A stretch of 32,000 bases of DNA from Candidatus Saccharimonadota bacterium. GTDB taxonomy: Bacteria; Patescibacteriota; Gracilibacteria; BD1-5; UBA6164. The notes below the pieces were generated by a model, which was not told the origin of the DNA, did not search any database, and saw only the letters and a list, made by a program, of their open reading frames with translations. The stretch is from assembly GCA_965227835.1 (NCBI GenBank), contig OZ245768.1:510001-542000 (forward strand), read 5' to 3'. This document shows, one piece after another, positions 1 through 32,000 of this stretch. Both the position numbers and the translations under genes were made by a program. The first letter of the stretch is position 1. Each line of letters opens with the position of its first letter.

Positions 1-123
1 CCAAGACATAATACCACTTGATTCCTTAAACATTCTTTCATAGTCTATAAATTGTTCAGGAGTTAGTTTCCTTTTAAGATTTTCTTTCGGAGAGAAATAA
101 TTTTTTATCTTTTCTAAATTCAT
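1..123 (-). CDS. hypothetical protein, N-terminal 41 codons only (continues past window start)
   Basis: ATG at 123..121 is open to position 1: MNLEKIKNYFSPKENLKRKLTPEQFIDYERMFKESSGIMSW. A canonical promoter lies just upstream. No family recognised. Confidence 0.45.
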   Translation of the reverse strand, partial: MNLEKIKNYFSPKENLKRKLTPEQFIDYERMFKESSGIMSW

Positions 124-155
124 TTTTTATGTACTATATAGATTTTATATTTAAC

Positions 156-183
156 ACTATAGTTGTATAATACATATTGTCAA
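156..183 (-). promoter_or_regulatory. sigma70-like promoter TTGACA-N16-TATAGT
   Basis: On the minus strand, TTGACA is at 183..178 and TATAGT at 161..156, about 30 nt upstream of the ATG at 123. Confidence 0.5.
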
Positions 184-200
184 TTACAAAAAGTAGAATT

Positions 201-238
201 TAAAAGAAAACCCTCAAGTTTTAAAACTTGGGGGTTTT
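201..238 (-). terminator. rho-independent terminator downstream of the YtxH-like gene
   Basis: Hairpin AAAACCCTCAAGTT-TTAA-AACTTGGGGGTTTT (207-238, one G-T pair). On the minus strand it is followed by TTTTCTTTT. Confidence 0.6.
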
Positions 239-328
239 GTAAATTATTTAAAAATTTTATTTTAAAAAATTATCTAAAAAATCTTTACTTTTATAATAAC
301 GAAATAATTTTGCCATGACTCCTTAAAT

Positions 329-808
329 CTATTTAATTTTTTTTACAATTTCATCTTTTATTTGCATAGCTCAAGATAAAATCTTATCTTTCAGCTCCAA
401 AGCTTTTTGAGGAGCTATTTCTTTTATTTCATCAATTTTATCTTTTTGCTCATCATAGATTTTATCTAATTCATCTAATCAAGCCTTAGCTGAATTTTTT
501 CATTTATTTTCTAAATCTTTCAAAGTTTTCTCTGCTTTTTTCATATAAGCATTTGATAATTTTAAAAGTTCTTGTTTTTTGGTTTCAAATTTTTTTCTAT
601 TCTCAGGAGTCAAAATTTCTTTTTTTAAAGATTCAAATAATTCTTTTTGAGTATCAGTAAAGTCTTGAATTAAAAAAGCAAAAACATCTCATCAATCTTT
701 TTTTATTTTTTCAATTTTTTTCTTTTTTTTAGGATCAAGAGACGAAACAATCATAGATCAAGCTATGTATCATCAAATAAGAGCAATAGATTTTCAAAGA
801 AATCACAT
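329..808 (-). CDS. YtxH-like general stress/membrane-associated protein (159 aa)
   Basis: Table-25 translation MGFLGKSIALIGGYIAGSMIVSSLDPKKKK... followed by a long Lys/Glu coiled coil. The N-terminal glycine-zipper helix only appears when the six in-frame TGA in it are Gly. Length is 480 nt, stop TAG. Confidence 0.65.
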
Positions 809-988: not shown

Positions 989-3541
989 ATGAGTTACAAA
1001 AATTTTTCTGAAAAATATAAAGAAACACTTATAAATTCTGAGATTAAAGTCAAAGAAATATGAATAAAAGATTTAAGAATAGAAGATGTATTTTTAGAAA
1101 TCGTAGCAACGGTATCATTGGCAACAAAAGATGTATTTACTCTATATTGAATAGATGAAAAATTAGTTATGGAAATAATAAATCAATGAGAATTAAACGA
1201 AAAACCAGAAAAAAGAAAATGAGTATATTCTTGAATGAACAGTGAATTAAAAAACATAATATTATCAAGTGTAAAAATTGCTGCAAACTTCAAGAAACCA
1301 AAAGCAAGTATAGAAGATTTTATATTAGCACTATTACAAAACTCCTCTTGGTTACCTAACTTTTTAGACTATATTGGAATAATTCCAAGTGATTTAGAAA
1401 CAAATATAATAGACCTAAACAAAGCATGAATATCTGATTGAGAACAAATTTGAAGCGAGGCAACTAAAAATGAAATAGACGAACTTCTTTGAAGTCTAAC
1501 ACAAAATCTATTTGAATGATTATCATCAGGAATGTCTACACCATTTGATTGAAATAAAAAAGTGGAAAACAAAAAAGATTATGAATCTGAAACACCTATA
1601 CTAGACTTTTTTTCTGAAGATCTTACACATTTAGCCCGTGAAGACAAAATAGACAAGGTAATTTGAAGAGAAGTTGAAATAAACAGATTAATAGCAATAT
1701 TAAACAGAAAAACAAAAAATAACCCTGTATTAATATGAGAACCATGAGTAGGTAAAACAGCAGTAGTAGAATGATTAGCAAGAGCAGTAGCTAACTCAAA
1801 AGTACCTTTTTCAATGAAAAACAAAAAAATACTTGCTCTTGATATAAATTCAATGGTAGCTTGAACAAAATACAGATGAGAGTTTGAAAGCAGAATAAAA
1901 CAAGTTATAGAAGAAGCCTCAAAAATAGAAAATGAAATAATACTTTTTATAGATGAAATACATACAATAATATGAGCTTGATCATGAGAATGAACACTAG
2001 ATGCATCAAATATATTAAAACCTGCTATGTGAAGATGAAAAATAAGAATAATATGAGCAACTACAGGTAATGAATACAAAAAATACATAGAAAAAGATTC
2101 TGCACTTGAAAGAAGATTACAAAAAATAGAAGTGTCAGAACCTGATTATAAAACATCTCTTGAAATAATTTGATGATTAAAAGAAACTTTTGAAGAATAT
2201 CATAATCTAAATATAAACGATGATGCTGTAGAAGAAGCAGTAGTCTTGGCTACTAGATATATAACAGATAGATATTTACCAGACAAAGCAATAGATTTAA
2301 TAGATGAAGCATGTAGTTTAAAATCAATGACTTACAATTTTGATGAAAAAGAAACTAAAAAAATAAAAGAAGATTTAGCTAAAACAAACAAATTAGTTGA
2401 AGAAGCTGTAATATCTTCTGATTATAAAAAAGCTTCAAGACTAAAAGAAAAGGCTTTAAAATTGAAAGAAAGTATAACAAAAACAAGACAAAAGTTCAAA
2501 ATACCAAAAAAAGATAGGTTAAATATAAAAAAACAAGATATTCAAAAAGTGCTTAGTATGAGTTCTGGAATACCTGTAGAAAATCTAAGTACTCAAGAAA
2601 TAACAAGGCTGAAAAATCTGTCAAAAGCTCTAAAAGAGAAAATAATAGGTCAGCAAAAAGCAATAGAAGATATAGTAAAATCTATAATGAGAAGTAAAAC
2701 TGGAATATGAGACGAAAACAGACCTCTTTGAAGTTTTTTATTTTTATGACCAACATGAGTGGGTAAAACAGAGTTAGTAAAAACTCTAGCAAGAGAATTT
2801 TATTTGGATAAAGATGCTTTGATAAAAATAGATATGAGTGAATATTCAGATAAAACTTCAGTAAACAAATTGATATGATCCAATGCATGATATGTTTGAT
2901 ATGAGGAATGATGACTTTTAACCGAAAGAGTAAGAAAAAAACCCTACAGCATAGTACTTTTTGATGAAATAGAAAAATGAGATTTTGAGGTATTCAATAT
3001 ATTATTACAAATACTTGAAGATTGAGTATTAACCGATAATAAATGAAAAAAAGTTAACTTCAAAAATACTATAATAATAATGACCAGTAACATATGAGCA
3101 GATGAATTTAACGAAAAAGCTCAATTAATAGGTTTTGATGTTTCTGAAAAATGAGAGGAAAAAGTGATGAGAGATTTTGAAAAAGCAAAAGAAAATGTAG
3201 TTTCTCACTTAGATGATTATTTTTCTCCGGAGTTTATAAATAGAATAGATAAAATAACAGTATTCTCCCCTCTTGATAAAATATCTATCAAAAAAATAAC
3301 TTCACTACAACTAAAAGGTCTAGAAGAGAGACTGCAAAAAAAATCTATTTCTATAACTTATGATAATATAGTTTTAAATTTTATAACAAAAAATGTATAT
3401 AATCCAGAGTTTTGAGCAAGGGAGGTTAGAAGATATATTATAGACGAAATAGAAGATAAAATAGCAGAAAAAATAATAGCTTACCCAAAGAAAAAAGCTT
3501 TTGAAATAAATATAAATAAAAATAACTTGACAATTATATAA
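989..3541 (+). CDS. clpC: ClpC-type AAA+ ATP-dependent chaperone/protease ATPase subunit (850 aa)
   Basis: Continuous only under table 25 (about 40 in-frame TGA by hand count). Walker A1 is [17 protein letters not shown] (TGA at 1736 and 1745). Other motifs: [33 protein letters not shown] and [14 protein letters not shown]. The short UVR-like linker ([11 protein letters not shown]) is ClpC-like rather than ClpB-like. Walker A2 is [19 protein letters not shown] (TGA at 2747 and 2756). Further motifs: [22 protein letters not shown] and GAREVRRYI. The track ORFs at 1235, 2246 and 3164 are all in this frame. Confidence 0.93.
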
Positions 3542-3590
3542 TAATAGATAAAATAGTTTTTACTATTTTAATTTATTATTTATAAAAACT

Positions 3591-4412
3591 ATGGAAAAAA
3601 TACACCCTTTAGTTGCAAAATGCTATGAAAAAGCAAAAAAAGATTTGAATTATAGCTGAAACATATCAGATACATTAGATCGTATTAATATTATTTTAAT
3701 TAATGATCAAAAAGGTAAAAAAAATAAAAAAATAAATAATGTTGAATGGAATGACATAGATCAATATTTATCTGATAGTATAAGTAAACAAGAAGTAATT
3801 AAATCCGTTAAAAACATTTGTATGTCTTTAGTAAGTTCAGAAAAAAGAGAACTTTTAAAACCCTATGTTAGTCGTATAGACCCAAAAAAATTAGCTTTTA
3901 TTTTAGATAAATTATCATATGAAATGATAGAGGCAATCGAAGCTAAAAATTTGGCAAATAAAAAAATGGGGCTACCAATGATAGGCACCATATATCGTAT
4001 AGACGGTTGATACTTAAAAGGTTCTTGACAAAATAAAAATTATATTAGATATTCAGATATAATTAAAGATTGTTGATGAAAAAGATTTGTATATAATAGT
4101 TGTGCAATACCACATTATAAACTTACGGAAATCTTAGAAAATTATGATGAAACAATTAATGACAATACAATAATTAAAAATTTGATTAATTGAAAAATTT
4201 ACCTAAGAAAAGTAAATAATATTATTAATGCTTTAGGGACAAAAAAATGAAAAATAATAGGATGGAAAATAATACTTAAATTGGAATGGGAGCAAATAGT
4301 TGCTATTTGAAAAAGTTTAGAATGTAGCGATATAGAAAAAATATGAGCTGAAAATTTAAAAACTATGAGTGTTTTAGAAATAGAAAATTATAGAAGTAAT
4401 TATGGAGATTAA
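3591..4412 (+). CDS. hypothetical protein (273 aa)
   Basis: Open under table 25 from ATG 3591 to TAA 4410-4412, and the track ORF 3822-4010 is in the same frame. No signal peptide and no recognisable motif. Confidence 0.6.
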
Positions 4413-4464
4413 AACTTAATTAAAATATTATTATTTAAATATCAAAAGTAAATTTAAGAAAAAA

Positions 4465-4494
4465 ATAGAAACATAATATGTTTCTATTTTTTTT
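4465..4494 (+). terminator. rho-independent terminator (symmetric, potentially bidirectional)
   Basis: ATAGAAACAT-AAT-ATGTTTCTAT is a perfect 10-bp stem. It is preceded by an A-run and followed by TTTTTTT. Confidence 0.7.
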
Positions 4495-4553
4495 GTAATT
4501 ATCCAAAAACTCTTTATAATCTGAAAAAATAAAAAACTTCATAAAATAAAAAA

Positions 4554-6227
4554 ATGAAAAAAAGCATTTTTTTAACAATATTAGTAATAATAATATCTCA
4601 AGTTAAAATAACTTGAGCTTTTCTTGGTTCTGATTTATGATTAGATCTATACAAAAATTTAGATGAATGATTAAAAAGTTTTGAAGAATCTCAATATGTA
4701 TATGAACTAAGTGGACAAGAAAAACAAGATATTTCTGAAAAAATAAATACTCAGCTAGAAAGTGAAAATATAAAAGGTTGTCTAATATCATGAATAAATC
4801 CAGTAACAATTGAGAGTATAGCTAAATGAAATATATGAGATTTGATAGAAAACTTAGAAGAAAAAGAAGAATGTTGATACAATGAACAAACAGAAAAATT
4901 TGATTCTCTAAATGCAACGGAAATCTGACAATTTATATCAGAAATATCAAAAATAACCAGTATAACAAAAGACAAAGCAGAGAAAAAAGCAAAAGCTATA
5001 TATGAAACTTCAAGAATATGAATGTATAGTGATTGAGACACTAAAAATTCTCCATTTGATTTAATTGAGGATATAAGCCAAATAGATGAAGTTATATTTA
5101 GTGAAATAGTGGAATATGAATGAGATGAAAATAGTTTTCTACAAGACTCGGCAAGAAAATACATATGAGATTATATTATACAATGACCCGATTCCCCTAC
5201 TAATTTAATAGACCCAGAAGAAGACAAAGAAAATCAACCAAATAAAGAAGATTGAGAAGAATTAGAAGAGGTAGAAATTGAAGAAATACCAAAAGAAGCC
5301 TATCTAAATTTAGATGGAAATAGTTATATGTGTATAGAGGAAACAAATGAGTCTTGATTGAGTAATGATTCTCTAAATTTATTAAATGAAAGTTTAAGTA
5401 TGACCTGATCAGCAGATATGAGCTTTAACTTTGCTTACTATTGATGACATGTTAAACTGCCAAATTCAAATAAAATAGAAATACCCGACCTAAACTCTAA
5501 TAATTATAGCAATTCCTATGTTAAAATTAATGACAATTCATCTTGGGGATGTAATAGGTTTTTCTGTATAACAATAGATTTTGTAGTAAAAAAACAAAAA
5601 GCACTTTGATGATATAAAAATAAAAAAACAATAGAGTGAGTACTTAACGAATCAAACAAACACTTAAAAAAATGAGCAAACACATCTCTAGCTCAATCAA
5701 AAATGACTACCAACAATTTTGAGTTAAACTTAAGAGATATAAATATGCCAGAAATGTTTCATTTATGACTTGTAGTAATGAAGAAAGCACCTCCTATATT
5801 AAATCTAGAAAATATTACTCAAAAGCAAGAAAGCTGAGAAAATCAAAGTTGAAATAGCCAAAATGTTTTAAATATGCTTAGAAAAAAGTACAAGAGCCTG
5901 TGACTTGATTATAATAATTCTAATGATATTAGAAATTTTTTAAGAAAAGATGAAGAAGTATTATCAATAATTAGCTCCATAGAAAATTCCTCAACAAGAG
6001 CAGAAAAATTAATGAACGAATATAGAGAATCATTAAGATTAGAATCAAAGATAGTAGAATATCAAAATTATGAAGAAAAAAAAGAAATAAAAAACAACCT
6101 ACTAAAAGATTTTGGTGAAAAATTCTTTGAATTAGAACAGTTTACAAGCAACCTTTTAGAATATTCCCAGAATTTATGAAAACTAGTAAAAAAACTAGAT
6201 GAAGATATACCAACCTACAGCTGATAA
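4554..6227 (+). CDS. secreted hypothetical protein (557 aa), acidic, Cys-containing
   Basis: N-terminal signal-like segment MKKSIFLTILVIIISQVKITGAFLG. Open under table 25 to TAA 6225-6227 (the last sense codon is TGA). The central hydrophobic motif NRFFCITIDFVV and the C-terminal coiled coil match no family I recognise. Confidence 0.65.
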
Positions 6228-6261
6228 AATCTATTGCAATTAACTACCCTATTTTCTATCT

Positions 6262-6356
6262 GTTATACTCCCCCCTCTCCTCCAAAAGGAGAGGGGTTAG
6301 GGGGTGAGGGTTTACTTGTATTAGAGTGGAGCATCGCTCAAGCTAGAGTGAGGGCT
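6262..6356. other. GC-rich structured island (hairpin plus short direct repeats) in an AT-rich intergenic region
   Basis: CCCCTCTCC-TCCAAAA-GGAGAGGGG is a 9-bp G/C stem (6272-6296). It is followed by GGGGGTGAGGG, a small GAGC-ATC-GCTC hairpin, and duplicated TAGAGTG(A/G)G (6322 and 6344). There is no T-tract after the main stem. Confidence 0.5.
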
Positions 6357-6426
6357 ATAATGTTATGCTAAAGATAGCTAAATTCAAAAATTGTGATAAA
6401 AAACTAAAAAATAAATTTAAAGTTTT

Positions 6427-7731
6427 ATGAGAAAAACAAGACACATTCTAATGATAATATTTCTATTATTTATTATATCAAAAAATACAAATATAGCATC
6501 AGCATCACAATGTAGAATAGACTCTACTCCAAGCTATATACTTGATTACATAAAAGATACTAGAAAGATAATATCAAATATGCAAAATACTGCTACAAAA
6601 AAGAAAGACAAAGAAGAAAAAAGTATTATATGAGAAGAAAATACTAGAAGTTTTAACAAACTATATTGAGTTTATAACTCTATGTTTTCGTGGTGATCAT
6701 ACAATCTAAATTTCGCATATTACATGTGAGGAATAAAAAAAGAAATTCCTAAACAAATAAAAAGAGATATAGAAATACTTGAAAGAGAAAGTGAAAATAT
6801 ATCAAAAAAATTTAGAGATTTTACAAGAAAATGAATAAGTGATATAGAACTAACAAAAGAAGAAATATGTAAGGATATTAAAGATTCATCCAGCAGATGT
6901 TGAGGTCTAAATAATTCAGACTCAATAGAAATACTAAAAAAATTATTAAAATCTACAGATTCTCTTATATGATATATGAAAAACAATGCAGTAGATAAAG
7001 ATTATTATCAAGAAGAAACTTATTTTTTACTATGAGAAGAAACACTATTAAATATAAAAATAGATTATTCTAAAACCAGTATAGAAGAGTGCAATAAAAG
7101 CGATTGAGAGGAAAAATGATTTTTTAGGACAATTCGTGAAAGAATAGAACAAATAAGTATTACTTGAAAAAACAATGAAAAATCTATGCAAGAATGGAGA
7201 AATGCCATAAATCTTTTATGGTGAGATGCAAGTGATGAAGAATACAGAAAATTAGAAGCAAAACTGCTAGCTAGTGAGTTGGCAAAACAATGAATATCAT
7301 GAGACAGAGCTAAAACAATTATGTGAAATTTAGAAGCATATAATAAGAACTGAAGTCTTTTATGATGAGAAGAATGATTTTTCAACTCATTAAAAAAACA
7401 AGCAGATGAACTAGATCAAGTAGTTAAGGAATTGGAAAAAAAAGTAGATAGATCATTAGATACATACATATCCGTAAAAGATTTTGATTCTAAAACTCTT
7501 ATTATAAAGAAAACAGAGGATATAAAAATATCTATAAATTCTATATATGCTATACTTAAAGAAGCTTCTTTAGAAAATGATGAAACTGTATGAAACTTAA
7601 AAGGACAAATGGAAAAAATGCATATTAATCTGTCTCAATGAATAAACAGCTTAGTTGATACTTGTCAGATATCTGTAAAGGTATGTGAAAGCCAAAAAAA
7701 ATGATTAACACCTTGTTGAAAATGTAATTAA
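6427..7731 (+). CDS. secreted hypothetical protein (434 aa), Cys-containing
   Basis: Signal peptide MRKTRHILMIIFLLFIISKNTNIASA. Open under table 25 to TAA 7729-7731. The C-terminus CQISVKVCESQKKGLTPCGKCN is Cys-rich. The standard code truncates it at 68 aa. Confidence 0.7.
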
Positions 7732-7773: not shown

Positions 7774-7921
7774 TTCCAACAGATGGCTTTAGCCATTTGA
7801 TGATTAAGGTTTTCAACAGATTACCTTAGCCATTTGATGATTAAGGTTTTCAACAGATTACCTTAGCCATTTGATGATTAAGATTTTCAACAGATGGCTT
7901 TAGTCATTTGAATATTATGAC
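7774..7921. repeat. tandem direct repeat, 4 copies of 37 bp
   Basis: The unit is TTTCAACAGATTACCTTAGCCATTTGATGATTAAGGT. Copies start at 7774, 7811, 7848 and 7885. Outer copies 1 and 4 carry the palindromic core ATGGCT-TT-AGCCAT (AGTCAT in copy 4). Inner copies 2 and 3 have ATTACC-TT-AGCCAT. The array lies between the secreted-protein gene and map. Confidence 0.9.
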
Positions 7922-7952: not shown

Positions 7953-8699
7953 ATGCTAACAAAAAGAGAAGTAAAACAGATGATGCAAAACGCAAAAGTA
8001 CACAAAAAAGTTTTTGAAGAAATAAAAAAAATAGCTTTTGAATGAACAAATATACAAGAAATAAATAAACTATGTGGAGATATAGCAAAAAAGCATAATA
8101 TGCTATGTGCCTTTAAGTGAGAATATTGATTTCCAGATAATATATGCATAAGTATAAATAGTGAAATAGCACATTGAAGATGAAGTAGGGATATAGTTCT
8201 AAAAAACGGGGATTTAGTTAATTTTGATTTTTGAATAAGAGACAAACACCTAAAAATAAACACTGATACAGGTTTTAGTGTTGTTATATGATGAGACAAA
8301 TACAATCCTATTGCAGCAAAAATGATAGAAGTAAATAAGAAAGCACTTGAAGTTTGAATATCTATGTGTAGATTATGAAATTATATAGGAGATATAAGTT
8401 CAGCAATAGAAAAAGAAGTAAAATCTTGATGATTTAAAGTAGTAAGAGACCTCACAGGGCACGGTATTTGAAAAAAAATACACGAAAGACCATATATTCC
8501 AAACTATTGAAAACCAAATACATGAGAAAAAATAAAAGAAGGTATGGTTTTATCAATAGAACCTCTAATTTGAGAAACTAGCTGAGATATAAGTCACGAA
8601 AAATGAGAGTGGGAAATATACATAAAAGATTGAAGTTTAGGTTGCCAATTTGAAAGTAATATATTGGTAACTAGATGATATCCTATAATAATTATATAG
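7953..8699 (+). CDS. map: type I methionine aminopeptidase (248 aa)
   Basis: Table-25 translation shows FKGEYGFPDNICISINSEIAHG, NFDFG, DLTGHGIGKKIHERP, VLSIEPLI and CQFESNILVT, the metal-ligand motif order of MetAP. Stop is TAG 8697-8699. Confidence 0.9.
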
Positions 8700-8938: not shown

Positions 8939-9862
8939 ATGTTATTTACAAAAGCACATATAAATTTCTTAAACTACCTAGAGGTAATTAAAAATAAATC
9001 ACAAAAAACTATTGAGCAATACGATAGGCATTTAAATAAATTTACTGGTTTCTTGGAAGATTCAAATATAGATAGTTATAAATTTGTAGTAGAAAAAATA
9101 GATTTAAATCTAGCAGACTCTTTTAGAGAGTATTTATATAAGTCCTCTGAAAAAAAAATAAATATAAAAACGGCAAATGCTTATATGATAACACTTAGAT
9201 CATTTTTAAAATACTTAGAAAAAAAATGATATAAAAGTTTATCAGCTACTTCTATAGATTTGATAAAAGCAGAACCAAGGCAGGTAGAATTTCTTACAAG
9301 AGATGAGCTAGAAAGGCTTTTTGAAACTCCAGACAAAGACAGTTTGATATGAAGTAGAGATATAGCAATAATGGAGATGATATATTCTACATGACTTAGA
9401 ATATCTGAACTAACAAGTTTGAATATTAGAGATATAGATTTAGAAAGAAAGGAATTTGCCATTAGAGGAAAATGAAGAAAAGTAAGAGTAGTTTATATGA
9501 CCTCAAAATCTCAAATACTTGTAAAACACTACCTAGAAAAAAGAAGAGATCATCTATCTCCTCTTTTTATAAGACACAATATTGATATGAATAATATAGA
9601 TGTACTAGAAGACGAAAAAGTAAGACTATCTAGATTTTTTATAACCAGTATGATAAAAAACTATTGAATAAAAGCAGGTATACTAAAAGATATTTCAGCT
9701 CATACTTTGAGACATTCTTTTGCAACAACCCTCCTTGAATCTGGAGCTGATCTAAGATCAATACAAGAAATGCTTTGACATTCAAGTATTTCAACAACTC
9801 AAGTTTATACTCATGTAACCAATAAAAAACTCAAAGAAATACACGAAAAATTTATGAGATAA
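8939..9862 (+). CDS. XerC/XerD-family tyrosine recombinase (307 aa)
   Basis: An N-terminal SAM-like core-binding region ([24 protein letters not shown]) is followed by a catalytic domain: [29 protein letters not shown] and [39 protein letters not shown]. Confidence 0.88.
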
Positions 9863-11923: not shown

Positions 11924-13087
11924 ATGCCTGAAAAACTTTTTTACAATATCTTTAACAAAAATGAAAAGATAACCAAAGATAACATAATGATTCTAAAAAA
12001 AGAATTGTTGGAATTATTTAAACTATTAAAAAATAAAAACGATGTTGATAATCTAAAAGTATTAAAAAACAAAATAGAATTAACCATAAAAAACTCCAAA
12101 AAGAAAATAGATAAAAAACATAAAGAGTGACTATTAAATATAGTAGATAGAATAGAAAACTACATTGAAAATCAAGAAGAAAAAGAAAGTAAAAAAGAAG
12201 AGGTGAAAATGATAGATGTAGTAAAAGAAATAGAAAAAAAATACAAAAAATGTGAGAATATAGATCCGGAAAAACTTAAACAATACACAAAAACTTGTAG
12301 GAAAACTTCAACAATAGAATATGAAAAACAGTTAGCTAAACTACAATTAGAACTAGCTAAACTTGGTAGGTATATAAGGGATTCTTGAGAAAAGATACTT
12401 ATAATTTTTGAAGGCAGAGATGCTGCTTGAAAAGGATGAACTATAAAAAGATTTATGGAACACCTTAATCCTAGAATAGCAAAAGTAATAGCTCTAAATA
12501 AACCTTCAGAAGAAGAACAAAGCCAATGGTATTTTCAAAGATATATAAAAAATTTACCCAACGGATGAGAAATAAGTTTATTTGATAGGTCATGGTATAA
12601 TAGAGCTTGAGTGGAACCTGTTATGTGATTTTGTACAAAAGATCAATACGAACAATTTTTAAATGATGTAGTTCTTTTTGAAAAAATGCTTGTAGAAAAT
12701 GGTCTTAGAATCATAAAATTTTATTTTTCTGTGAGTAAATCTGAACAAGCAAAAAGATTTAAAGAAAGAAAGACAAATCCTTTAAAACAATACAAACTAT
12801 CTCCTATAGATCAATTTTCTCAAGAACTATGGGATAAATACACTTTAGCTGAATATAAAAACTTTAGTAAAACTCATAGCTCTCATGCACCTTGGACTTT
12901 GATAAATTCAGATGACAAGAAAAAAGCAAGAATAAATGCTATAAAAGTTGTTTTAAACAATATTGATTATCCATGAAAAATATCAGACAAAGAATTAAAA
13001 GTAGATGATAGTGTAGTTTATTCTTGAAGGCAAAAAACTAGAAACCTAAAAGAAGAAATAAATGTAAAAAAAGATTTATTTGATTAA
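11924..13087 (+). CDS. ppk2: polyphosphate kinase 2 with an N-terminal extension of about 120 aa (387 aa)
   Basis: [77 protein letters not shown], and [36 protein letters not shown]. The track ORFs at 11924, 12203 and 12686 share one frame. An internal start (for example 12209) cannot be excluded. Confidence 0.88.
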
Positions 13088-13212: not shown

Positions 13213-13737
13213 ATGAAACTTATAGTTTGACTTTGAAATCCAAGTAAGAAATATGAAAAAACTAGGCACAATCTTTGATTTATGTTCCTAGATTTTTTTG
13301 CTTTGAAAAACAGTTTTCCCAATTTCAAAAAAGAAGATAAATACAAATGAGAAATTTCTCAGTGAAATTTTATGTGAGAAAAAACAATTCTGCTAAAACC
13401 TCAAACTTATATGAATTTAAGTTGAGAAGCTATATATAAGATAAAAAATTTCTATAAAATAGACCTAGATGACATAATTGTTATTTTTGATGATTTTAGT
13501 ATGAATTTTTGAAAAATAAGGTTTAGAGATAAATGAAGTTCTTGATGACATAACTGAATAAAAAATATAATTTCATATTTTGGAAATAGTTTTAAAAGAA
13601 TAAAAATATGAATTTGATTTAATGATTTTTACAGTGTAGATGACTGGGTTTTATCAAAATTTGAAGATAAAGATTTAGAAGAATTAGAAAAAAATGTTTT
13701 TTTAGAAACCATAAATATTTTGAAAGACAAGATTTAA
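13213..13737 (+). CDS. pth: peptidyl-tRNA hydrolase (174 aa)
   Basis: [23 protein letters not shown] (TGA at 13228 and 13234 are the Gly of VGLGNP). Further motifs: [40 protein letters not shown] and RIKIGIG. Confidence 0.92.
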
Positions 13738-13760: not shown

Positions 13761-14762
13761 TTAATACATATATTTCTTGTTTTCTTCATGCTGTCTATTC
13801 GTCTCTGAATAATAGATTTTTCATGTTTTTACATTATGAAGATAATACCAAAAAGAAGTTTTTTTATCATTTAGTGTAGCATTTATTGTTATACTGCTAG
13901 GATTAGATATAGGAGTTTTAGGTAAACCAATCATAGTTCTAGTATTATAATCAGATTTTTCTTGAATATATTTTGACACTACCAGTTTACACTCTTGGCT
14001 AGTAAGTTTATGAGGATAACAAACTGTAATATCTGCCCCTATACTCCATCAGCTTTGTAATCTTTTTTTTAATATACCAGCAACCGTACTTTTTTCTTTA
14101 TTATTTTTTTCTTCTTTTTCTACTATAGAAGCCAAATTAACCACATCATATATAGTTTGGTTTGATAAGTTTTCAGGTTTTAATATTTTCTTGTATGCTT
14201 TATTTTCAAAAGTATCTAATTGTTTTATAACCAGCTCATTTATTTTTAATGGTGTTTTTAGTATATATGTATCTGGATATAAATATCATTCCAAACTTAT
14301 AAGCTCTAAATTTAAAAAATCATAAAACTCTTTCAATGCTTTTATTTTTTCAGGATTTTGAACATAGTTTATATAATCATCTTTTTCTATAAGTTTTTTT
14401 TGATACAGATAATCATCTATATCATATATGTTCCATCATTCTATTATGGTAAGCTCTGTTTGTTTTTCTGATATTGGTTTCTCCAAGCTATCTAATATTT
14501 GTTTTATATCAAAAGACTTTTTCATTTCAAATTTTCAAGCTAGGAGGATAAAATCTTTTTTATTGTTTTTGATATATTTCTTTAAAAAATAATGATTTAA
14601 GTCCAGCTTTGAAGCTAAATCCTTTATGTTTTCTCATTTTTGTATATGAATTATTTTATTTTCTTTTATTAATTCTTTTTCACCAAATTTTTTATAAGAA
14701 TAATTGGTATAAACAATTGTTATTATTATTATAATAGCAATATATTTTATAATATTTTTCAT
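13761..14762 (-). CDS. mltG: endolytic murein transglycosylase MltG/YceG (333 aa)
   Basis: N-terminal TM segment KYIAIIIIITIVY. Further motifs: EGYLYPDTY, LASIVEKEE, VAGILKKRLQSGWSIGADITVCY, YNTRTMIGLPKTPISNPS and FWYYLHN. Its stop lies 23 nt from the convergent pth stop. Confidence 0.85.
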
Positions 14763-16623: not shown

Positions 16624-16625
16624 TT

Positions 16626-18663: not shown

Positions 18664-19806
18664 TTATTCTCAAGAAGATTCTTTTATTTCTTCAAGAGCT
18701 TTATTAATCTTTTCAATTGAATCAATTAATTCTTGTAATTTTATTCAATGCTCTGTTGAAGCATTCAAATCAGCCTCTATTTCTATTCACTCTTCTTGTA
18801 ATTGTTTTAACTCTAATTGCAATTCTGCTAATTTAGCTTCTAATTTTCTTTTTCTTTCTCTTGTTTTAGATAAAATTTCTTCTTGTATTTCTTCAGCAAT
18901 ATCTAAATACTTAGTTTCATAGTTTCTTTTTTTATTTGATAAATTAACATATATTGTTGATATGTCTTCATTTAACATAGAATCTATTTCTGAGTCTGTA
19001 GCATCAGTTCTATTTTCTCAAGTTAAAAAATTCCAAAGTTTTAGTACTTCCTCATTTGGATATACTCAATCTGGATACTTTTCTGTAAAAGCTAATATTC
19101 TATCAAGTCTTTCCTTATCTTCTGGTGTAAATCTTTCTTCTACAGGTATTCTATCTATTATAGTCTGATTATTTTCAACTAATGAACTTCATTCAGCTTT
19201 ATTAATAAAAATAGAAGAAATATTAAAATTGGGGTTATCTGATGATTCAGTTAATGGTTTTCTAATATTTTCTAATAATTTTGCTAACGAATAAGATTCT
19301 AATGAGCTTATCAAAGCTTCTGGAGCTCATTGTAATTTAAATAAATCTAATCTAAATTGTTTAATTATAGCTAATGATAAGGCCATAGATTGATAATGTT
19401 TTTTTCATTTAAGTTGAGTTAATTCTATATTTTGTGTTAGGTTTAAATTTTCAGCTGATGAAAGTTCATCTAGTCTATTTTGATTTTCTGAAGAAAAAGA
19501 TAAATAACCAGATTCTAAAAGATCTACTAATATTTCTTTAGTATTTGAATCTGTTATTCGTTGTAATTCACCAGAATCAATTGTAGACAAAATAGATTCC
19601 AAATCTTTATCTCAAATATTAAAAGAATCATTATTTGTAGTTAAAAAAGTTTGTAGTATTTGGCTTATACACTGTACTTTTAGTGCCTCACTAGAATATT
19701 CTGGTAAATCATTTAAATTACAGTCTAAATTATCAGATGGCATTCCAGTTTCATTATTTATATTGGCAATTTCTGCTCCACCAGAATTAGGGCTCCCTGT
19801 TAACAT
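18664..19806 (-). CDS. acidic coiled-coil hypothetical protein (380 aa)
   Basis: Track ORFs 19612-19806, 19405-19602 and 18787-18978 join into one frame through in-frame TGA (for example ..TQLKGKKHYQSMALSLAI..). The C-terminus is a heptad-like coiled coil (KLEAKLAELQLELKQLQEEG). An internal start at 19386 is possible. Confidence 0.65.
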
Positions 19807-19841
19807 AAATTTATTTTTAAAATATAAGATATTTAATAATA

Positions 19842-19853
19842 ATATTTTGGTAA
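19842..19853 (-). promoter_or_regulatory. TTACCAAAATAT motif overlapping a weak promoter (TTTACC-N17-TATCTT) of the 19806 operon
   Basis: The minus strand reads TTACCAAAATAT 36-47 nt upstream of ATG 19806. The same 12-mer forms the inverted repeat at 25651-25690. Confidence 0.4.
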
Positions 19854-20014
19854 ATAATCTTTTTATGACTTTACAATATTATTTCATATTTTAAGAATAT
19901 CATATATTCTTTTTTATTTCAAATTTGGGAGCTATTTTTTTAAAATAAGATTAAATAGAGGATAAAATAAAAAAGTAGATAAGGAATAAAAGTAAAATTT
20001 AAACAAAAAATCAA

Positions 20015-20145
20015 GCAAGAGTTTAAGTATAAATAAGGGAGCAAGCAAGGGGTTTAGGCAAAATGCAAGAGTTTAGGATAGAATGCAATGGATCGAGGCA
20101 AAATACAGTAATTCAAGATAAAATGCAAGGGGTCAATACCCCTTG
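20015..20145. repeat. degenerate tandem repeat, 20-nt period, ending in a GC-rich hairpin
   Basis: Units are phased exactly at 20045, 20065, 20085, 20105 and 20125 (GCAAGGGGTTTAGGCAAAAT, GCAAGAGTTTAGGATAGAAT, GCAATGGATCGAGGCAAAAT, ACAGTAATTCAAGATAAAAT, GCAAGGGGTCAATACCCCTTG). One further unit is at 20015. Confidence 0.8.
20126..20145 (-). terminator. GC-rich hairpin CAAGGGGT-CAAT-ACCCCTTG (possible minus-strand terminator)
   Basis: Perfect 8-bp stem. On the minus strand it is followed by CATTTTATCTT, which is only moderately T-rich. Confidence 0.35.
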
Positions 20146-20267
20146 TCTATAAGAGATAAGTAAAAGAATATTTTGTAGTAACCCAACTTGTGAATTAATT
20201 TATAAAATAAAATTTAGGGACCAAAATTAACATTTTGCAGAAAAATTAATCTTTTTATTTTTAGTAG

Positions 20268-20378
20268 GCAGAGAGTTTTAGCCTTTTACAAATCCAAAAT
20301 TCTTATCTTTACATTCAAAAGAGAGCTTTAGCTCTTTGCAAATTTCTATGTAACGCAGAGCTTCAGCTTTTTGTAAAT
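20268..20378. repeat. three dispersed copies of a roughly 25-nt unit
   Basis: The copies are GCAGAGAGTTTTAGCCTTTTACAAAT (20268), AAAGAGAGCTTTAGCTCTTTGCAAAT (20318) and CGCAGAGCTTCAGCTTTTTGTAAAT (20354). Spacing is irregular. The middle copy holds an AGAGC-TTTA-GCTCT mini-hairpin. Confidence 0.7.
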
Positions 20379-20439
20379 TAGTTTAACATAAAAAAATCAT
20401 ATCTTAATTAAAAAAATTAAATTGTTAAAATTTAGACTT

Positions 20440-20468
20440 AAAAAAAGACAAGGGGTTTTAACCCCTTG
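20440..20468 (-). terminator. rho-independent terminator (minus strand), second copy of the GC-rich hairpin
   Basis: CAAGGGGTT-TT-AACCCCTTG (20449-20468) is a 9-bp stem. On the minus strand it is followed by TCTTTTTTT. It lies about 185 nt downstream of the permease stop. Confidence 0.6.
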
Positions 20469-20590
20469 AATTACTAGATTATTAGTACCCTTGAATTAAT
20501 AGATTATTAGTACCTTTGAATTAGTAAATTATTAATACTGTTGCATTATTGTATTTTTAATACTTTGAAAAGTATTAATACATAACCTCT
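20466..20590. repeat. degenerate tandem repeat, 25-nt period, starting at the second hairpin
   Basis: The units are TTGAATTACTAGATTATTAGTACCC (20466), TTGAATTAATAGATTATTAGTACCT (20491), TTGAATTAGTAAATTATTAATACTG (20516) and TTGCATTATTGTATTTTTAATACTT (20541), then a decayed copy. The region includes the perfect palindrome TTAATACTTT-GA-AAAGTATTAA (20557-20578). Confidence 0.8.
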
Positions 20591-20651
20591 TTAAAATTTT
20601 GAATCATTTAATTATAAAACCCTAAAAATTTATATATACATTCTAATTAAT

Positions 20652-22172
20652 TTATAGACTATTTAAATACATAAGATAAACAAAAAAACTAGCAAAAAAA
20701 ACTTGTATAATCATAGAAGGAAGACCTACCTTTAAGTATTGCATAAAAGATAAATAAATTTTATTTTTAGCTAAAACTCAAGCAGCAACTAAGTTAGCAC
20801 TAGCTCAAATTAAAGTTCAATTTCATCAAAAACAAGCTCAAAGAGCCAAAGCCCACCATAAAAAAGAAGCATCAAATCAAGCTCATCAATAATGAGCTAT
20901 CAAATTAGCAACAACAGGCAACATAACAGCAGTAAATGGTATATTATCAAGAAGTGCTGAGAATATAGCTGAAACCCAAAGTATTACAAGAGCACATAAA
21001 AGCAAATTTTCTCAAAAATTAAGTTTTATCAAATTAGCAACTAAATCTAGGATTCAGGTATTTTCCAAAGCTCATACTATCATAAATAAAAATACGAAGA
21101 AAGCTAAAACCAACCATTCCACATCTTTGGAAAAAGAATTATGTATAGCCTCTTCCATAACTTCTTTATTTTTTCAAAACTTCCTCCTCATAAGCCTATC
21201 TCTACAAAACATCAAAAAAGCAGCTCACATCAAGGCAGGAACGGTAGCAGGCATATGTAAACTTGAATGTAATAAAAAGAAGATTATAACAAAAACTAAA
21301 CTTAAACCAGAAAAAAATAAAAGTTTTTTATGTTTTATTTTGTATTCATTTCTCATTTTGGATATGAGACTATCCACATCTTTTATCTCCAGAGCATTTT
21401 TAAGATTCTTATTAAAAACCAAATACATATTTATACACAAGATTAAACTTATAAATAAGACAGGTAAACCCATATTTCTCAAAAAATCATTAAATGAAAG
21501 CCCAGCAAAACTTCAAATCATTATATTTGGTGGATCTCAAATAAGTGTAGCAGCTCCTCAAAGGTTAGAAGCAATTATCATAGGTATTACAAAACTTATA
21601 GGATTAATTTTAAATATATTTGCTATTTTTATAGCTATGGGGGTTATAAGTATTATAGTTGTAACATTATCCAAAAAGGCAGAAAGAACTCATGTAGTTA
21701 TTATAAAGAGGAAAAAAAGCTTGAATATATTTCATCTAGATATTTCAAATAGTTTGAAAGCTAACCATTCAAAAACATTTGTTTGAGCTAAGACTCAAAC
21801 TATTATCATCATGGATAAAAGAAGTCATATAACTTCTCAATCTATACTTCTAAAAGCATCTTCTAGTGTAAGAATTTTGAACTCTGGTACTAAATTTCAA
21901 AATGTATATGTAAAGAAAATAAGAACACTTGCTATAAGAAATACAACCAAAGTTCTTTGTATTTTTTCACTAGCGACAAGTGTTATAGTAAGAAACATAA
22001 CTAAAGTAAGCAAAAGTCCTATCATAGGATTATCAACATAGGAAGAAACCATTTCTTGACCTCAAGAGTAAGCAATAGTTTGATTTATGAAAGAAAATAA
22101 GAAATAAAAAAAGAATATAATTTTTGAAAAATATCCTATTTTTTTTAGAAGTTTGAATAACCCATGTTCCAT
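20652..22172 (-). CDS. ArsB/NhaD-superfamily anion/ion permease (506 aa)
   Basis: A polytopic membrane protein with the duplicated signature FLDNVTTIILITPI..ASNLGGAATLIGDPPNIMI and LLDNIPFTAVMLP..LGACFGGNGTLIGASANLV. The frame was verified codon by codon from 20930 to the TAA at 20652-20654. Track ORF 21225-21482 is in frame. Confidence 0.82.
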
Positions 22173-22342: not shown

Positions 22343-22612
22343 TTAATCATCTATATGAGGTTGAATTCTAGGTCTATTCAATTCAGTAATAGCAGACTCA
22401 TTAAGCCGTTCACTGACAGTTTCTATAAGTCTACAATTAAAATCAACTTCAATTACTATTCTATCAAAAAATTGACATGAAGAACAATTTTCAGGAATAT
22501 CTAATTTTTCAATTTCCCTACTTTGAACCTCTACAACCAAATCTTTCTCCTTAAATGGATTACAAGGTTTGAAAACCACATAAGTTTTTACTTCTTTACT
22601 AAGAATTTCCAT
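22343..22612 (-). CDS. small Cys-containing hypothetical protein (89 aa)
   Basis: Intact in either code: MEILSKEVKTYVVFKPCNPF...ENCSSCQFFDRIVIEVDFNC.... It has a strong SD (AAAAAGGAGTTAAATA-ATG), its own TTGACA-N16-TATATT promoter and a strong terminator. It contains no Gly and no TGA. Confidence 0.7.
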   Translation of the reverse strand: MEILSKEVKTYVVFKPCNPFKEKDLVVEVQSREIEKLDIPENCSSCQFFDRIVIEVDFNCRLIETVSERLNESAITELNRPRIQPHIDD

Positions 22613-26763: not shown

Positions 26764-27285
26764 TTATATCCTAACAGTAGAAATATCTATTATTTTCTTT
26801 ATTTCTAAGTCATGAGGAGCAAGCATATTTTTATTTTTTAAACTATTGAGTAAATTTACATAATCTTCAAATAAATGGGAAATAAATACATATTTACCCT
26901 CATCTATTAAAATGCTATCAGCTATAAAACCTATTTCCCTTATTGTTCATTCTCATCAAGGTAAAGCCAAAAATATATCTCAATCTAATTTAAATGCTTG
27001 GTTTCTTGAATAATCATCTGGAAAAAAACATATATCAATCCCATTTCATTCATCATATTTTCTATATTTTTCTAATGAATATCATTTTACTGTTATTCAA
27101 ACATCTTGAGCTGTCTTATAAACTAATCACATTACTCATTCATTCTGTCATCAAAAAAGTATTCTATCAATAGATACTTTATTTTCTACTAAAAAAATTC
27201 TCAGTCATTTTTTTAAACTTTCATAAATACTATTATCTTGTATTTTTTGACTTCAAGCAAATACAACTAAAGTAGATTTATTCAT
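26764..27285 (-). CDS. LOG-family (TIGR00730-type) nucleotide-binding / nucleoside 5-prime-monophosphate phosphoribohydrolase-like protein (173 aa)
   Basis: Both LOG signatures are present: ILFGGQNEGVMGLV (GGxxxGxMG) and FLALPGGEGTIREI (PGGxGTxxE). Several of the Gly residues are encoded by TGA. Confidence 0.8.
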
Positions 27286-27647: not shown

Positions 27648-28016
27648 TTATTCGTGTTTTCCATGTTCATCAGATCCATGATCATCGATATCTTCTCATT
27701 CATGCATTGTTTCCATATGCATATCTACATCGGACATTTCAGTATCATTCATTTCCATATCATCTTCTATCATATGAGAGTCATCTGATATATCCATCAT
27801 ATCATGACTACTATCTCCATCTGTAGAAGTATGTTTCATATGTTCTTCTATAGTCATATTCATTCTAGCCGCCGCATCTTTCATTTCTTTATATTCAGCT
27901 GTACTCATATTATATTTTTCAGCTTGTTCAGCTTCAGTTAAAGGAGCTTCTGAACCACAAGATGCTAATCATAAAGTTGCTACTAATAGTAGACTTACTA
28001 ATAAAAATTTTTTCAT
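27648..28016 (-). CDS. Met/His/Asp-rich lipoprotein, candidate metal (Cu/Ag)-binding protein (122 aa)
   Basis: Signal peptide plus lipobox MKKFLLVSLLLVATLGLASC. The mature part is rich in M, H and D: HDMMDISDDSHMIEDDMEMNDTEMSDVDMHMETMHEGEDIDDHGSDEHGKHE. It is the last gene of the cusA-containing operon. Confidence 0.7.
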
Positions 28017-28128
28017 AATAAAAATTTAAAATATAAAATAAAATTGTTTTCTAAAATATTAACCTCTTCATAGTTAGGGAGGAATATTAGAAGTTAAAAG
28101 AGTATTTTTCATGACTAAAAAAATTAAA

Positions 28129-29625
28129 TTATAAAAATTTTTCAAAATAAACATTTTCTATTTGTTTTTGTTGTAATGCTTCACTTGTTTGCTCAACTAG
28201 TTTTGGATTTCCACAAATATATACTTCATCATTTTTTCATATATTTATTTTCTCAACATCTACTCTTCCATATTTATGTCCCTTTATTTCTTCTCAAGAT
28301 AAATAAGTAAATACTTGTAAATTTGGGATATTTTTTAATACATCTAAATAAAATAAATCTTTCTCATATCGTACTCAAAAATGAAGTTCTTTTTTTGTTT
28401 TCCAAGTATTAATTATCATATTATATATTGGAGATAATCATGTTCCAGTAGCTATAAAAATCTTCTTTCTACTTGTATTTTTAAGAATAAAGTCTCAGTA
28501 TGGTCACAAAACTTTTATTTGATCTCATAGTTTTGATTTTCTAATTTCAGCTGATCAACTTCCCTCTTCAGTTAATTTTATAAGAAAAGTAAGTGTATTA
28601 TCTATATATTTAGCAACCGAATAACTTCTTATGATTTTATTTTTTCACTTTCTGAAAATAAAATTACAAAATTGTCATGATTTTATTTCTAAATCTCTTT
28701 TACATAAAAATACAAGTTCTACTACATCATCTGTTAAATATTTCTTTGATTCCAAAATAAATTCTAGTTCATGATTTTCTTTTATCTCTGGATTATAATG
28801 TCAGTCCAATGGAATAAAATCCTTTTTACTCACTCAACAAACAGGACATCTCCAATTATTTGGAATATCTTCAAATTTTGTTCATGGAGCTAATCAACCA
28901 TCTTCATCTCATAACTCTTCATCATAGATATATCAACATGGGAGACATAAGAATTTTCTATATTCTCATTTTCCTAATCACTTACCTCATTTTCTTTCAT
29001 ATCTTTCATCAAACCAAGTATATGATCTCAGTAATATAAGAATAACTCATGGATATAAATAAATTCCTTTCCATCATCATATAAAATAAATATGAAGTAA
29101 TACAATTATAAACAATGGATATACTCCTTTTTGAAGATATTTCCAAAATTTTGCTCACATGATTCTTTGAGAAAGATCATTTGAGGTAAATAATAAAGTT
29201 AACATTACTATAAAACCAATAATTCATATCCAAAAAGCATAAAAGTTCATTCAAAATATACTTTCTCACCAAGCATTAAAAATACTATTTATAAGAAAAT
29301 CTCAATATCACATTTTTTCTATATAATATTTTTCCCATAAATTACTTACTCTTTCTTCAAAATGTAATACATGCATCAAAGAGAAAGCTCCTGCAAGTAT
29401 TCAAATAGGTCTTCTATAGTTTATTAACTTATTAGAATATTTTTTTAGTTTTTTAATTTTCAAAAGTAATTTAGAAAATGGTGTTACTAGTAATACAAAA
29501 ATAAGATAATAATAACTGAGGAATCAAAATATTTGCACATCATTTGATAATATTTGCTTTGCTAGAAAATATAGTGGTATTACTGGTATTAAAGATATCA
29601 TTAGCCTAAAAATAGTTTTTTTCAT
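28129..29625 (-). CDS. fusion protein: ferric-reductase/YedZ-like TM domain + rubredoxin + FNR-like FAD/NAD(P)H reductase (498 aa)
   Basis: The N-terminal polytopic part has His in TM helices (AGAFSLMHVLHF, FIIVLLHIYF). The middle is a textbook rubredoxin: [46 protein letters not shown]. The C-terminal part has RSYSVA (RxYS FAD motif), LGPYGDF and IFIATGTGLSPI (NAD(P)H motif). Confidence 0.8.
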
Positions 29626-29635
29626 TAAATGTAAG

Positions 29636-29875
29636 TTAATTTAATAAATCCTTTTTCTTTTCATCAAATTCATCTTTATCAATTTCTCAATTTGCATACC
29701 TTTTCTTTAAAATTTCTAGTGCTGATTCATTTTTCCTTTCATTTTTCTGAGAATTTTTATTTATAAAATAGATCACTAAAAAAATAATTACTACATAAAA
29801 TAAAATTTGCCATATTCAGAAAAATCCAAAACCCCACATATGTCAAAATCAGTAATTTCAATCATAATTATACAT
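29636..29875 (-). CDS. SHOCT-domain small membrane protein (79 aa)
   Basis: A Gly-rich N-terminus and one TM segment (IWQILFYVVIIFLVIYF), then a SHOCT-like tail LEILKKRYANGEIDKDEFDEKKKDLL. An alternative ATG is at 29865. Confidence 0.65.
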
Positions 29876-29898
29876 AATCAAATAGTTAAATTATAAAA

Positions 29899-32000
29899 TT
29901 AAGTATTAATCTTTCTTTCCCTTAGGTAAGAAAATAAAATTGGTAATATAATAAGTGTTAAAGCAATTGATGTTATAAGTCATCATACTACTACTATCGC
30001 CAGTGGTTTTTGCAGTTCAGCTCAAGTTCATGTACTCCATATCATCGGCAATAATCAAATTACAGAAGTAAAAGCAGTCATAAGTACAGGTCTCAGTCTT
30101 ACCATAGCTCAGTGAATAACTGATACATGGATTCATTCTTTTGTTATAATTGTATTCTTGTAATCTTCTTTCTTCAGAACTTTTTCATCCATAAGAGGAA
30201 GTCAGAATTTTTCTCTAAAGGCATTTTCTAGATACAGAATCATTACTACTCATGTCTCAACAGCATTTCAGAATAAGGATATAAATCATACCCATACAGC
30301 TACTGAAAAATTAAATCATGATATATATAATGCTATAATTCAACCTATCAGACTAAAAGGGATAGAAAGAGCTACAATTCATACTAGACCTCCATCTTTA
30401 TAAGCTAAAAACAGAATAAACAATATAATTAGTACTACTGTAGGAACCACTACTTGGAGAGTACTTTTTGCTCTTAGCTGATTTTCATATTGTCCTGTCC
30501 ATTCAATATAGTATCATTCAGGAAGTTCTAGGTTTTCTTCTATATATTTTTTTCCATCTTCTACAAAGCTTACAAGATCTACTCATTGTACATTCATCTG
30601 TACTGCTGATCTAATAACTCAATTTTCAGAGTTTATAGTTGCTGGTCAATCTATTAAAGAAATGTTAGCAACTTGAGAAAGAATTACATTTCATGTTTTA
30701 GAAGAAACTTCTAAACTTTTAATATCATCTAAACTTTCTCTATAGTTATTTTTTAATCTTACTTCGATTCAATATTTCTCTCTTCCATCAATTGTAGTAC
30801 TCACAGTCTTTCATCAAATACCTACGGAAATAGTATCAAGTACATCTCATTTTTTTACTCCATATTCATTTAACTTTCTTTCATCTATATCTATTTGTAA
30901 ATATTTAAGACCTGTTGTTCTAATGGCTGTTACTCAGAATCCTCATGGAACATTTCACATAAGCTCCTCAGTCTCTATTGCTAACTCTTCAAGTTTCATA
31001 GGATCATCTCAAAATATTTTTATTCATACCTGAGCTCTAATACCTGTAGAAAGCATATCTATTCTTCAAATAATTGGCTGAGTAAAACCATTCCAAAGAT
31101 TATTTATTTTAATATTTCTATTCATTTCATTTATAATATCTTCTTTGGTTACTCATTCTCTCCACTCTGATTTCGGTTTGAGAGTAATAATAGTTTCAAG
31201 CATAGCCATTGGAGCTGGATCAGTCGCTGTCAAAGCTCTTCAAGCTTTTCACACAACTGTTTCTACTTCAGGTACTTCAGAGATAATTCTGTTTGATTCT
31301 ATAAGAAGATCTCTTGCTCTTCTATCACTTACATCAGGGACAGTCATTGGCATATACATGATACTTCACTCATCAAGTGGAGGCATAAATTCAGATCCTA
31401 TTCTTGTAAATAACCCAAGTCATACAACAAGAAGTATTCACGATATTGTTAAAGCTATTTTTCTTTTATTTAATGCCCATATTAAGATTGGTTCATATAT
31501 CCTTTGAAATAATCTTACGATTGGTATTTCATTATCTTTTTTTAGTTTTCATTTTAGAAAGAATACAGATAACACTGGTGCAAGAAAAAGTGAAGCAAAT
31601 AAAGCTCAAAGCATTGCAAACATATTCGTAAATGCAAGTGGCGAGAATAATTTTCATTCTTGTCATTCTAGTGCAAAGATCGGTACAAATGAAAGGATAA
31701 TAATCATAATAGCAAACATAAGTGGTCATGCTACTTCTTTTGTAGATTCATAAATTATTTCTGCTCTCTGTTTCGTACTAATATTTTCTTTTCCAAGCAA
31801 TCTATTATATGCATTTTCTGTAACTACAATCGCCGCATCTACCATGGTTCATATGGCTATAGCTATTCCTCAAAGTGACATAATGTTTGAAGGTATATTA
31901 AAAAGCTTCATACATAAAAATGTAATAAGCACTCATATAACCAAAGAAATAGCTGTTACTATTGAAGCTCAAAAATTCCATAAAAACAGAAAAAGAATAA
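29899..32000 (-). CDS. cusA: CusA-type heavy-metal efflux RND transporter, C-terminal 700 codons (N-terminus outside window)
   Basis: Table-25 translation aligns along its length with my recollection of E. coli CusA. Matching segments: [102 protein letters not shown] and LLPMIWSTGTGAE. The three CusA methionine-cluster positions (YMP, MAML, IDML) appear conserved. Stop is TAA 29899-29901. Confidence 0.88.

Follow-up and report, generated by a model that had tools for sequence, protein, structure and literature searches.

The 32,000-nucleotide stretch of DNA analysed here, positions 510,001 to 542,000 of contig OZ245768.1 (hereafter the window), is almost certainly part of a low-GC Patescibacteria chromosome that is translated with genetic code table 25, in which UGA is read as glycine, UAA and UAG are the only stop codons, and UGG continues to specify tryptophan. 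The meaning of UGA, the assignment of UGG to Trp, TAA and TAG as the stop codons in use, and the lineage are all shown by the present analysis. An earlier note on this DNA had arrived at the same reading and had added that the code is not novel. This is correct, as table 25 was described in 2013 and the UGA = Gly code has been known since then; the finding is right and annotation depends on it, although it is not new. Apart from the number of genes, the LOG family assignment and a detail of the E. coli Pth motif, the claims of the note stand. Table 25 was reportedly recognized in Gracilibacteria (BD1-5) by Wrighton in 2012 and Rinke in 2013, and in Absconditabacteria (SR1) by Campbell in 2013.

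Reading frames, codon usage and stop codons

The GC content of the whole window is 24.8%. Under table 11, stop-to-stop open reading frames (ORFs) of at least 100 amino acids (aa) account for 20.7% of its length; with TGA treated as a sense codon, the figure is 86.6%. The longest open frame grows from 297 to 865 codons once only TAA and TAG count as stops. Gene calling with TGA as sense yields 27 genes at a coding density of 85.7%, 21 of them ending in TAA, six in TAG, and none in any other codon. The previous description of 29 genes, all terminated by TAA or TAG, is right about the type of stop codon, but the count here is 27.

Within these 27 genes, 412 in-frame TGA codons occur beside 151 GGN and 60 TGG codons. 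If UGA is Gly, TGA accounts for 412 of 563 Gly codons (73%) and is the dominant Gly codon here; its share of all codons in the window is 4.5%. Out of frame, TAA and TAG occupy approximately 8.3% of codon positions within genes, and at this rate a frame of 850 codons free of both would arise by chance with a probability of only about 1e-32. The TGA codons are distributed uniformly along the length of the genes, with no C-terminal excess, and the protein lengths match those of homologues, as in the case of ClpC (850 aa) and the product of gene g26 (498 aa). With TGA read as Gly, this residue makes up 6.2% of the encoded proteins, compared with 1.7% otherwise, while reading TGA as Trp would raise Trp to 5.2%, compared with 0.66% from TGG alone. 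A double role of TGA, as both a Gly codon and a stop, was considered and rejected, given the lack of C-terminal TGA enrichment and the agreement in length with homologues.

Identity of the amino acid encoded by UGA

TGA is found at the Gly positions of conserved motifs in unrelated proteins, and every motif quoted in the earlier note was recovered. With TGA written as u, these are uEPuVGKT, uPTuVGKT and uYVuYEEuu in ClpC; VuLuNP and uSSuuHNu in peptidyl-tRNA hydrolase (Pth); GHGIu in methionine aminopeptidase (Map); DAAuKGu in polyphosphate kinase 2 (PPK2); LuH in a Xer-type tyrosine recombinase; CLPCu and CPVCu in a rubredoxin domain; PuuEuT in the product of g23; and SLuGIAIAIu in CusA. The six TGA coordinates that had been given are all in frame. 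Four of them lie in the two Walker A loops encoded by clpC (989..3541, plus strand), at 1736 and 1745 in the first ATPase domain and at 2747 and 2756 in the second, and the other two, at 13228 and 13234, belong to pth. The hand count of about 40 TGA codons in clpC comes close to the 41 in-frame codons counted.

References that use the standard code were employed to determine which residue corresponds to TGA. Six orthologues from E. coli K-12 (clpB, map, xerD, pth, mltG and cusA) were compared with the window proteins, in which TGA had been masked as X. Among the 115 TGA positions aligned in this way, 80 face Gly and 11 face Ala, while none faces Trp or Cys. Gly stands opposite 12 of the 14 TGA codons of Pth, all five aligned TGA codons of MltG, and 29 of the 44 in CusA, where again none is paired with Trp. 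The alignments of Pth, Map and XerD confirm the motifs VGLxNP, GGHNG, GHGIG and LGH; the second TGA of Pth pairs with Ala because the E. coli motif reads VGLANP.

A broader comparison is offered by 34 ClpC genes that follow the standard code, drawn from Clostridia, Negativicutes, Spirochaetes, Acidobacteria, Saccharibacteria and other groups. Nineteen of the 41 TGA columns of the window ClpC contain Gly in all 34 sequences, and the 26 columns that are conserved to at least 80% comprise 24 with Gly and two with Ala. All other well-sampled codons in this comparison fit the standard code. When the window ClpC was scored 20 ways against a profile hidden Markov model built from the 34 sequences, reading TGA as Gly came out best with 854.5 bits; the runner-up was Cys at 782.7, with Trp at 759.9 and X at 758.7. 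Gly therefore exceeds the next residue by 72 bits and Trp by 95 bits, and Trp performs no better than an undefined residue. ClpC matches from databases were rejected as references, since the best 120 all come from the same recoded clade and are translated with table 4, which makes their use circular.

Structures in the PDB point in the same direction. In the alignment of PPK2 with 5ll0, five of seven aligned TGA codons correspond to Gly, including both within DAAGKGG, and all four TGG codons correspond to Trp, including those in SWYNRA and APWTL, which bears out the claim that TGG still encodes Trp. In the rubredoxin domain, TGA occupies the glycine of each CxxCG as well as two other conserved Gly positions. 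Alignment of the TGA columns to references, the check suggested in the earlier note, thus favours Gly in the E. coli, ClpC and PDB comparisons alike, and none of them points to Trp or to protein termini.

Exchange of codons among recoded relatives provides evidence that is independent of any translation table. Eight recoded genome loci (L007-L014) were compared codon by codon. Their clpC genes contain between 6 and 56 in-frame TGA codons and no in-frame TAA or TAG, and the sum of TGA and GGN per full-length gene remains at about 56-62 throughout. The share of TGA drops with rising GC content, from 56 TGA and 6 GGN at 20% GC to 6 TGA and 53 GGN at 45%. At the 41 TGA columns of the window ClpC, these relatives have TGA 171 times, GGN 91 times, and TGG not once. 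In the closest relative retrieved (L144), whose ClpC is 82% identical, the window TGA codons are matched by TGA in 87 cases and by GGN in 25; conversely, TGA stands opposite GGA or GGT of the window in 11 cases, and TGG is found opposite TGG in nine. Given this swapping, both in the eight loci and in L144, TGA and GGN behave as synonymous codons.

One of the eight loci, L007 (CAYFMG010000001.1), belongs to a record titled 'Candidatus Peribacteria', yet its clpC contains 40 in-frame TGA codons. Candidatus Peribacteria is a name used for a group with the standard code, and either the label or the code annotation of this record is probably wrong, given these 40 codons.

Certain observations weigh against the assignment of UGA to Gly. 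Approximately 30% of the TGA codons aligned to E. coli face residues other than Gly; this can be regarded as ordinary divergence, because the GGN codons of the window do no better, with Gly opposite 23 of 40 (43% non-Gly). Three TGA columns of ClpC are mostly or conservedly Ala in other phyla; the presence of GGN or TGA there in recoded relatives indicates a change from Ala to Gly specific to this lineage. Furthermore, tRNA scans of the window and of about 230 kb from related loci, comprising the eight genome loci and loci of five further relatives, detected no tRNA gene.

CGG codons and the completeness of table 25

Table 25 may itself be incomplete, because close relatives place CGG at an invariant Trp position and this codon is nearly extinct in the window. 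Among the 9,144 codons of the window, CGT occurs nine times, CGC never, CGA three times and CGG once, and the 5,150 codons of L144 contain no CGG. The relevant gene is g26 (28129..29625, minus strand), which contains 30 TGA codons and encodes a protein in which a ferric-reductase-like membrane domain is fused to a rubredoxin and an FNR-like reductase; TGA is the last codon of both its CxxCG knuckles. Among 76 aligned homologues of this protein, 11 have 'R' in place of the invariant Trp of the rubredoxin motif W-x-C-P-x-C (column 258), and proteins 66-72% identical to that of the window are included in these 11. Three orthologous genes, namely L087 5594-7090 and L088 1470-2966 (both ~72% identical) and L089 10001-11503 (58%), have CGG exclusively at this Trp position and at column 97, and the window has TGG at both.

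These observations suggest an extended code, consisting of table 25 with CGG reassigned to Trp and CGA retained as Arg, which would add to the reading of UGA as Gly rather than replace it. This extension is tentatively put forward, with a likelihood somewhat short of even. Besides the position of CGG at the invariant rubredoxin Trp and column 97 in the three orthologues, it is favoured by the near-extinction of the codon, a state expected around codon capture, and by a published precedent, as Absconditabacteria are reported to read both CGA and CGG as Trp, and some Gracilibacteria to read CGG in this way (Shulgina and Eddy 2021, PMC8629427). On the other side, the sole in-gene CGG of the window (22406..22408, minus strand) lies within an 89-aa orphan ORF (22343-22612) whose only database match is itself, and higher-GC relatives (L011 and L013) place CGG at Lys- or Ile-type, that is, Arg-like, positions. 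CGA, moreover, behaves as Arg in both the window and its relatives: the CGA at 28369, residue 419 of g26, is AGG in L088, and CGA codons of relatives correspond to AGA in the window. In the comparison with the PDB, the same g26 site is Asn in methane monooxygenase reductase. The near-identical strain L090 has a single CGG, inside an uncharacterised protein. If the extension holds, a sense codon would be undergoing reassignment in this lineage, at or near the stage of its extinction or capture.

Other readings of UGA

Table 4, in which UGA encodes Trp, is the code of Mycoplasmatales and several insect endosymbionts, and it would equally produce a low GC content and ORFs that run through TGA. 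It is also the code applied in a public protein collection, which stores translations of this genome with Trp at every TGA, so that ClpC (P0001) carries 41 and the g26 protein (P0121) carries 30 false Trp residues. To judge from the alignments, this reading is already refuted and extremely improbable. Trp faces none of the 115 TGA codons aligned with E. coli orthologues. In the 34 standard-code references it forms the majority at no TGA column of ClpC and is missing from the residues noted there; in the ClpC profile, it falls 95 bits below Gly and does no better than X. TGG was never found in relatives at the TGA columns of the window, and Trp would reach 5.2% of all residues. The public entries for P0001 and P0121 are systematic Gly-to-Trp errors.

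Least probable of all, and likewise already refuted, is the standard code, with the TGA codons as genuine stops (in pseudogenes or through assembly errors), selenocysteine sites or points of occasional readthrough, since beyond its being the default expectation for bacteria nothing speaks for it, while against it stand 412 in-frame TGA codons evenly spread over 27 genes, their location at invariant catalytic Gly residues of essential genes, the presence of TGA or GGN at the same codon positions in independent assemblies of relatives, the equal length of ClpC, g26 and their homologues, and a score 72 bits below that of Gly for Cys, the stand-in for selenocysteine, in the ClpC profile. Selenocysteine recoding, which would call for infrequent UGA codons at redox-active Cys/Sec sites together with a SECIS element and a long-arm tRNA-Sec, was also rejected as a candidate in its own right: at 4.5% of codons TGA is too frequent, the Cys deficit of 72 bits disfavours it, and there was no Rfam match of any kind at gathering thresholds.

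Decoding and termination

With UGA as Gly, the codon would be decoded by a dedicated tRNA-Gly whose anticodon is UCA, and release factor 2 (RF2, encoded by prfB) would have been lost, leaving release factor 1 (RF1) to terminate translation at UAA and UAG. Both steps are suggested by published work on the clade. In BD1-5, proteomic data have validated the reading of UGA as Gly (Hanke et al. 2014, as cited in Sieber et al. 2019, PMC6851277), and every BD1-5 genome examined has prfA but lacks prfB (PMC6851277). The combination of tRNA-Gly(UCA) and RF2 loss is described as a hallmark of the clade, and in nominal "Gracilibacteria" that possess RF2 and lack this tRNA, UGA serves as a stop (PMC8629427; gTranslate preprint). 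The genes of the window include no release-factor gene, nor does one occur in the roughly 230 kb of related loci. Rfam, applied to the window at its gathering thresholds, returned nothing.

A candidate for such a tRNA comes from metagenome contigs, which were scanned for a UCA anticodon loop accompanied by a T arm and by a 3' acceptor end of the Gly type. Several tRNA(UCA) genes of normal length were found. One of them, on contig L121 (Ga0228670_1000016; 1549-1622, minus strand), encodes a 74-nt tRNA that has a UCA anticodon and, as its set of Gly identity elements, G1-C72, C2-G71, G3-C70 and U73. The contig has a GC content of 25%, requires TGA as a sense codon, and belongs to an assembly separate from that of the window; the tRNA gene adjoins a sigma-70 gene in which TGA occupies the Gly positions of the region-4 motif TLEEIG..G.TRERIRQIE. 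This tRNA-Gly(UCA) supports the proposed mechanism indirectly. ARAGORN labels tRNAs of this kind, with a UCA anticodon, as 'SeC'.

Lineage and relation to known codes

Placement of the window in the recoded Patescibacteria clade, the Gracilibacteria in a broad sense, is supported by the gene order and by the names that its best homologues bear, in keeping with the earlier assignment to Patescibacteria or the candidate phyla radiation. The best 120 ClpC matches in databases are 61-95% identical; the top one is the same protein, and the remaining top matches lie at 61-77%. Those that are named belong to Candidatus Gracilibacteria, and none to Absconditabacteria. The gene order clpC-g04-g05-map-xer, followed in some cases by pth or ppk2, is kept in recoded relatives. 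Organisms that use table 25 are found in the GTDB orders BD1-5 and Absconditabacterales (gTranslate preprint). The strain L090 differs in ClpC at 13 of about 809 non-TGA residues, and directly after clpC (L090 5642-11609) it carries two unrelated ORFs of about 970 aa in place of g03-g05 (window 3552-7731), which is a strain-level break in gene order.

Comparison with known systems reveals no substantive difference from the code of Gracilibacteria (BD1-5), which has the same meaning of UGA and the same TAA and TAG stops. The low GC content is shared as well (24.8% in the window, 28.9% in a closed genome), as is the small genome size, with 1.49 Mb for the source contig and 1.34 Mb for the closed genome (PMC6851277). 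The share of Gly codons written as TGA is 73% in the window; in clpC of relatives it varies with GC content, between roughly 10% and roughly 90%. The code of Absconditabacteria (SR1) is alike in that UGA is Gly and CGN codons are very rare, and the close relatives of the window have CGG at invariant Trp sites. However, CGA is read as Trp in that group (PMC8629427), whereas it is Arg-like in the window and its relatives, and no named match is to Absconditabacteria. Table 4, used by Mycoplasmatales, Hodgkinia, Zinderia, Nasuia and others, involves capture of the same stop codon in reduced genomes of low GC content, but the residue gained is Trp there and Gly here. Loss of RF2 has been published for table-4 and table-25 lineages alike.

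The value of recognizing this code is practical rather than conceptual. All gene calls in the window fail under table 11, and table 4 inserts Trp in place of Gly. Mistranslation of this kind harms homology searches, structure prediction and motif detection, as illustrated by an EamA match that scores 20.8 bits with TGA masked and 34.8 bits with TGA read as Gly. The assignment of UGA to Gly also serves as a lineage marker of the recoded Patescibacteria clade, and the side observation on CGG indicates that rare codons of the clade may be mistranslated even with table 25.

Gene content of the window

Protein families were assigned with Pfam after masking TGA as X, which avoids circularity. Under these conditions, ClpC, Map (M24), Xer, PPK2, Pth, YceG/MltG, the CitMHS transporter and the rubredoxin-FNR protein were still matched. 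ClpC contains the domains AAA_2, AAA_lid_9, AAA and ClpB_D2-small. Further along the plus strand, map (7953..8699) has 20 TGA codons, including the last Gly of GHGIG, and is identified by Peptidase_M24 and by alignment with E. coli Map. The Xer-type tyrosine recombinase (8939..9862, plus) has six, one of them in the LGH box, and is recognized through Phage_integrase and SAM-like domains together with alignment to E. coli XerD. It is followed on the same strand by the PPK2 gene (11924..13087), with nine TGA codons, including those of DAAGKGG, and a PPK2 score of 294.5 bits, and by pth (13213..13737), with 14 TGA codons, two of them within VGLGNP, and a match to Pept_tRNA_hydro.

The minus strand carries a YceG/MltG-family gene (13761..14762; six TGA codons, Pfam YceG), a CitMHS/ArsB-type membrane transporter assigned through Pfam (20652..22172; 24 TGA codons), and a CusA/AcrB-family RND pump whose 5' part extends beyond the edge of the window (29899..31998; 44 TGA codons, ACR_tran 500.9 bits). 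The earlier assignment of g23 (26764..27285, minus strand, 13 TGA codons) to the LOG family was not borne out. Its product does contain PGGEGT, but even with TGA read as Gly it reaches 25.6 bits for LDcluster4 (cut-off 26.3) and 21 bits for Lysine_decarbox (cut-off 27); this LOG-like protein has no Pfam match when TGA is masked and no match in the PDB, and its family membership is weakly supported.

Other features

Several repeat regions are present outside the genes. The gap between g05 and map contains a 37-nt tandem repeat (7777-7911) in 3.6 copies with 91% matches and a short palindrome in each unit (ATGGCTTTAGCCAT). A gene-free stretch of 845 bp (19807-20651) is dense in short repeat families, and Rfam returned nothing for it. 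It includes degenerate repeats of about 22 nt (19990-20140), approximately three related hairpin-like units (20260-20380), and a 25-nt tandem repeat in 3-4 copies (20463-20563), as well as two GC-rich hairpins at about 20127-20146 and 20450-20470.

The region 27648-31998 looks like a metal-handling island, as it comprises the genes of the CusA-type RND pump, a SHOCT-domain membrane protein, the g26 fusion, and a lipoprotein rich in Met, His and Asp. The g26 fusion has 81 database matches, and the named ones are only of the Gracilibacteria type. CusA is 86-88% identical to its counterparts in relatives whose adjoining gene is 58-72% identical, and the local GC content rises to 30.8%, which suggests either strong conservation or horizontal exchange.

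Three successive large acidic proteins of 565, 611 and 380 aa are encoded on the minus strand at 14926-19806. The first contains LysM and a weak match to amidase_2, which suggests a function in targeting the cell wall; the other two show no convincing family match.

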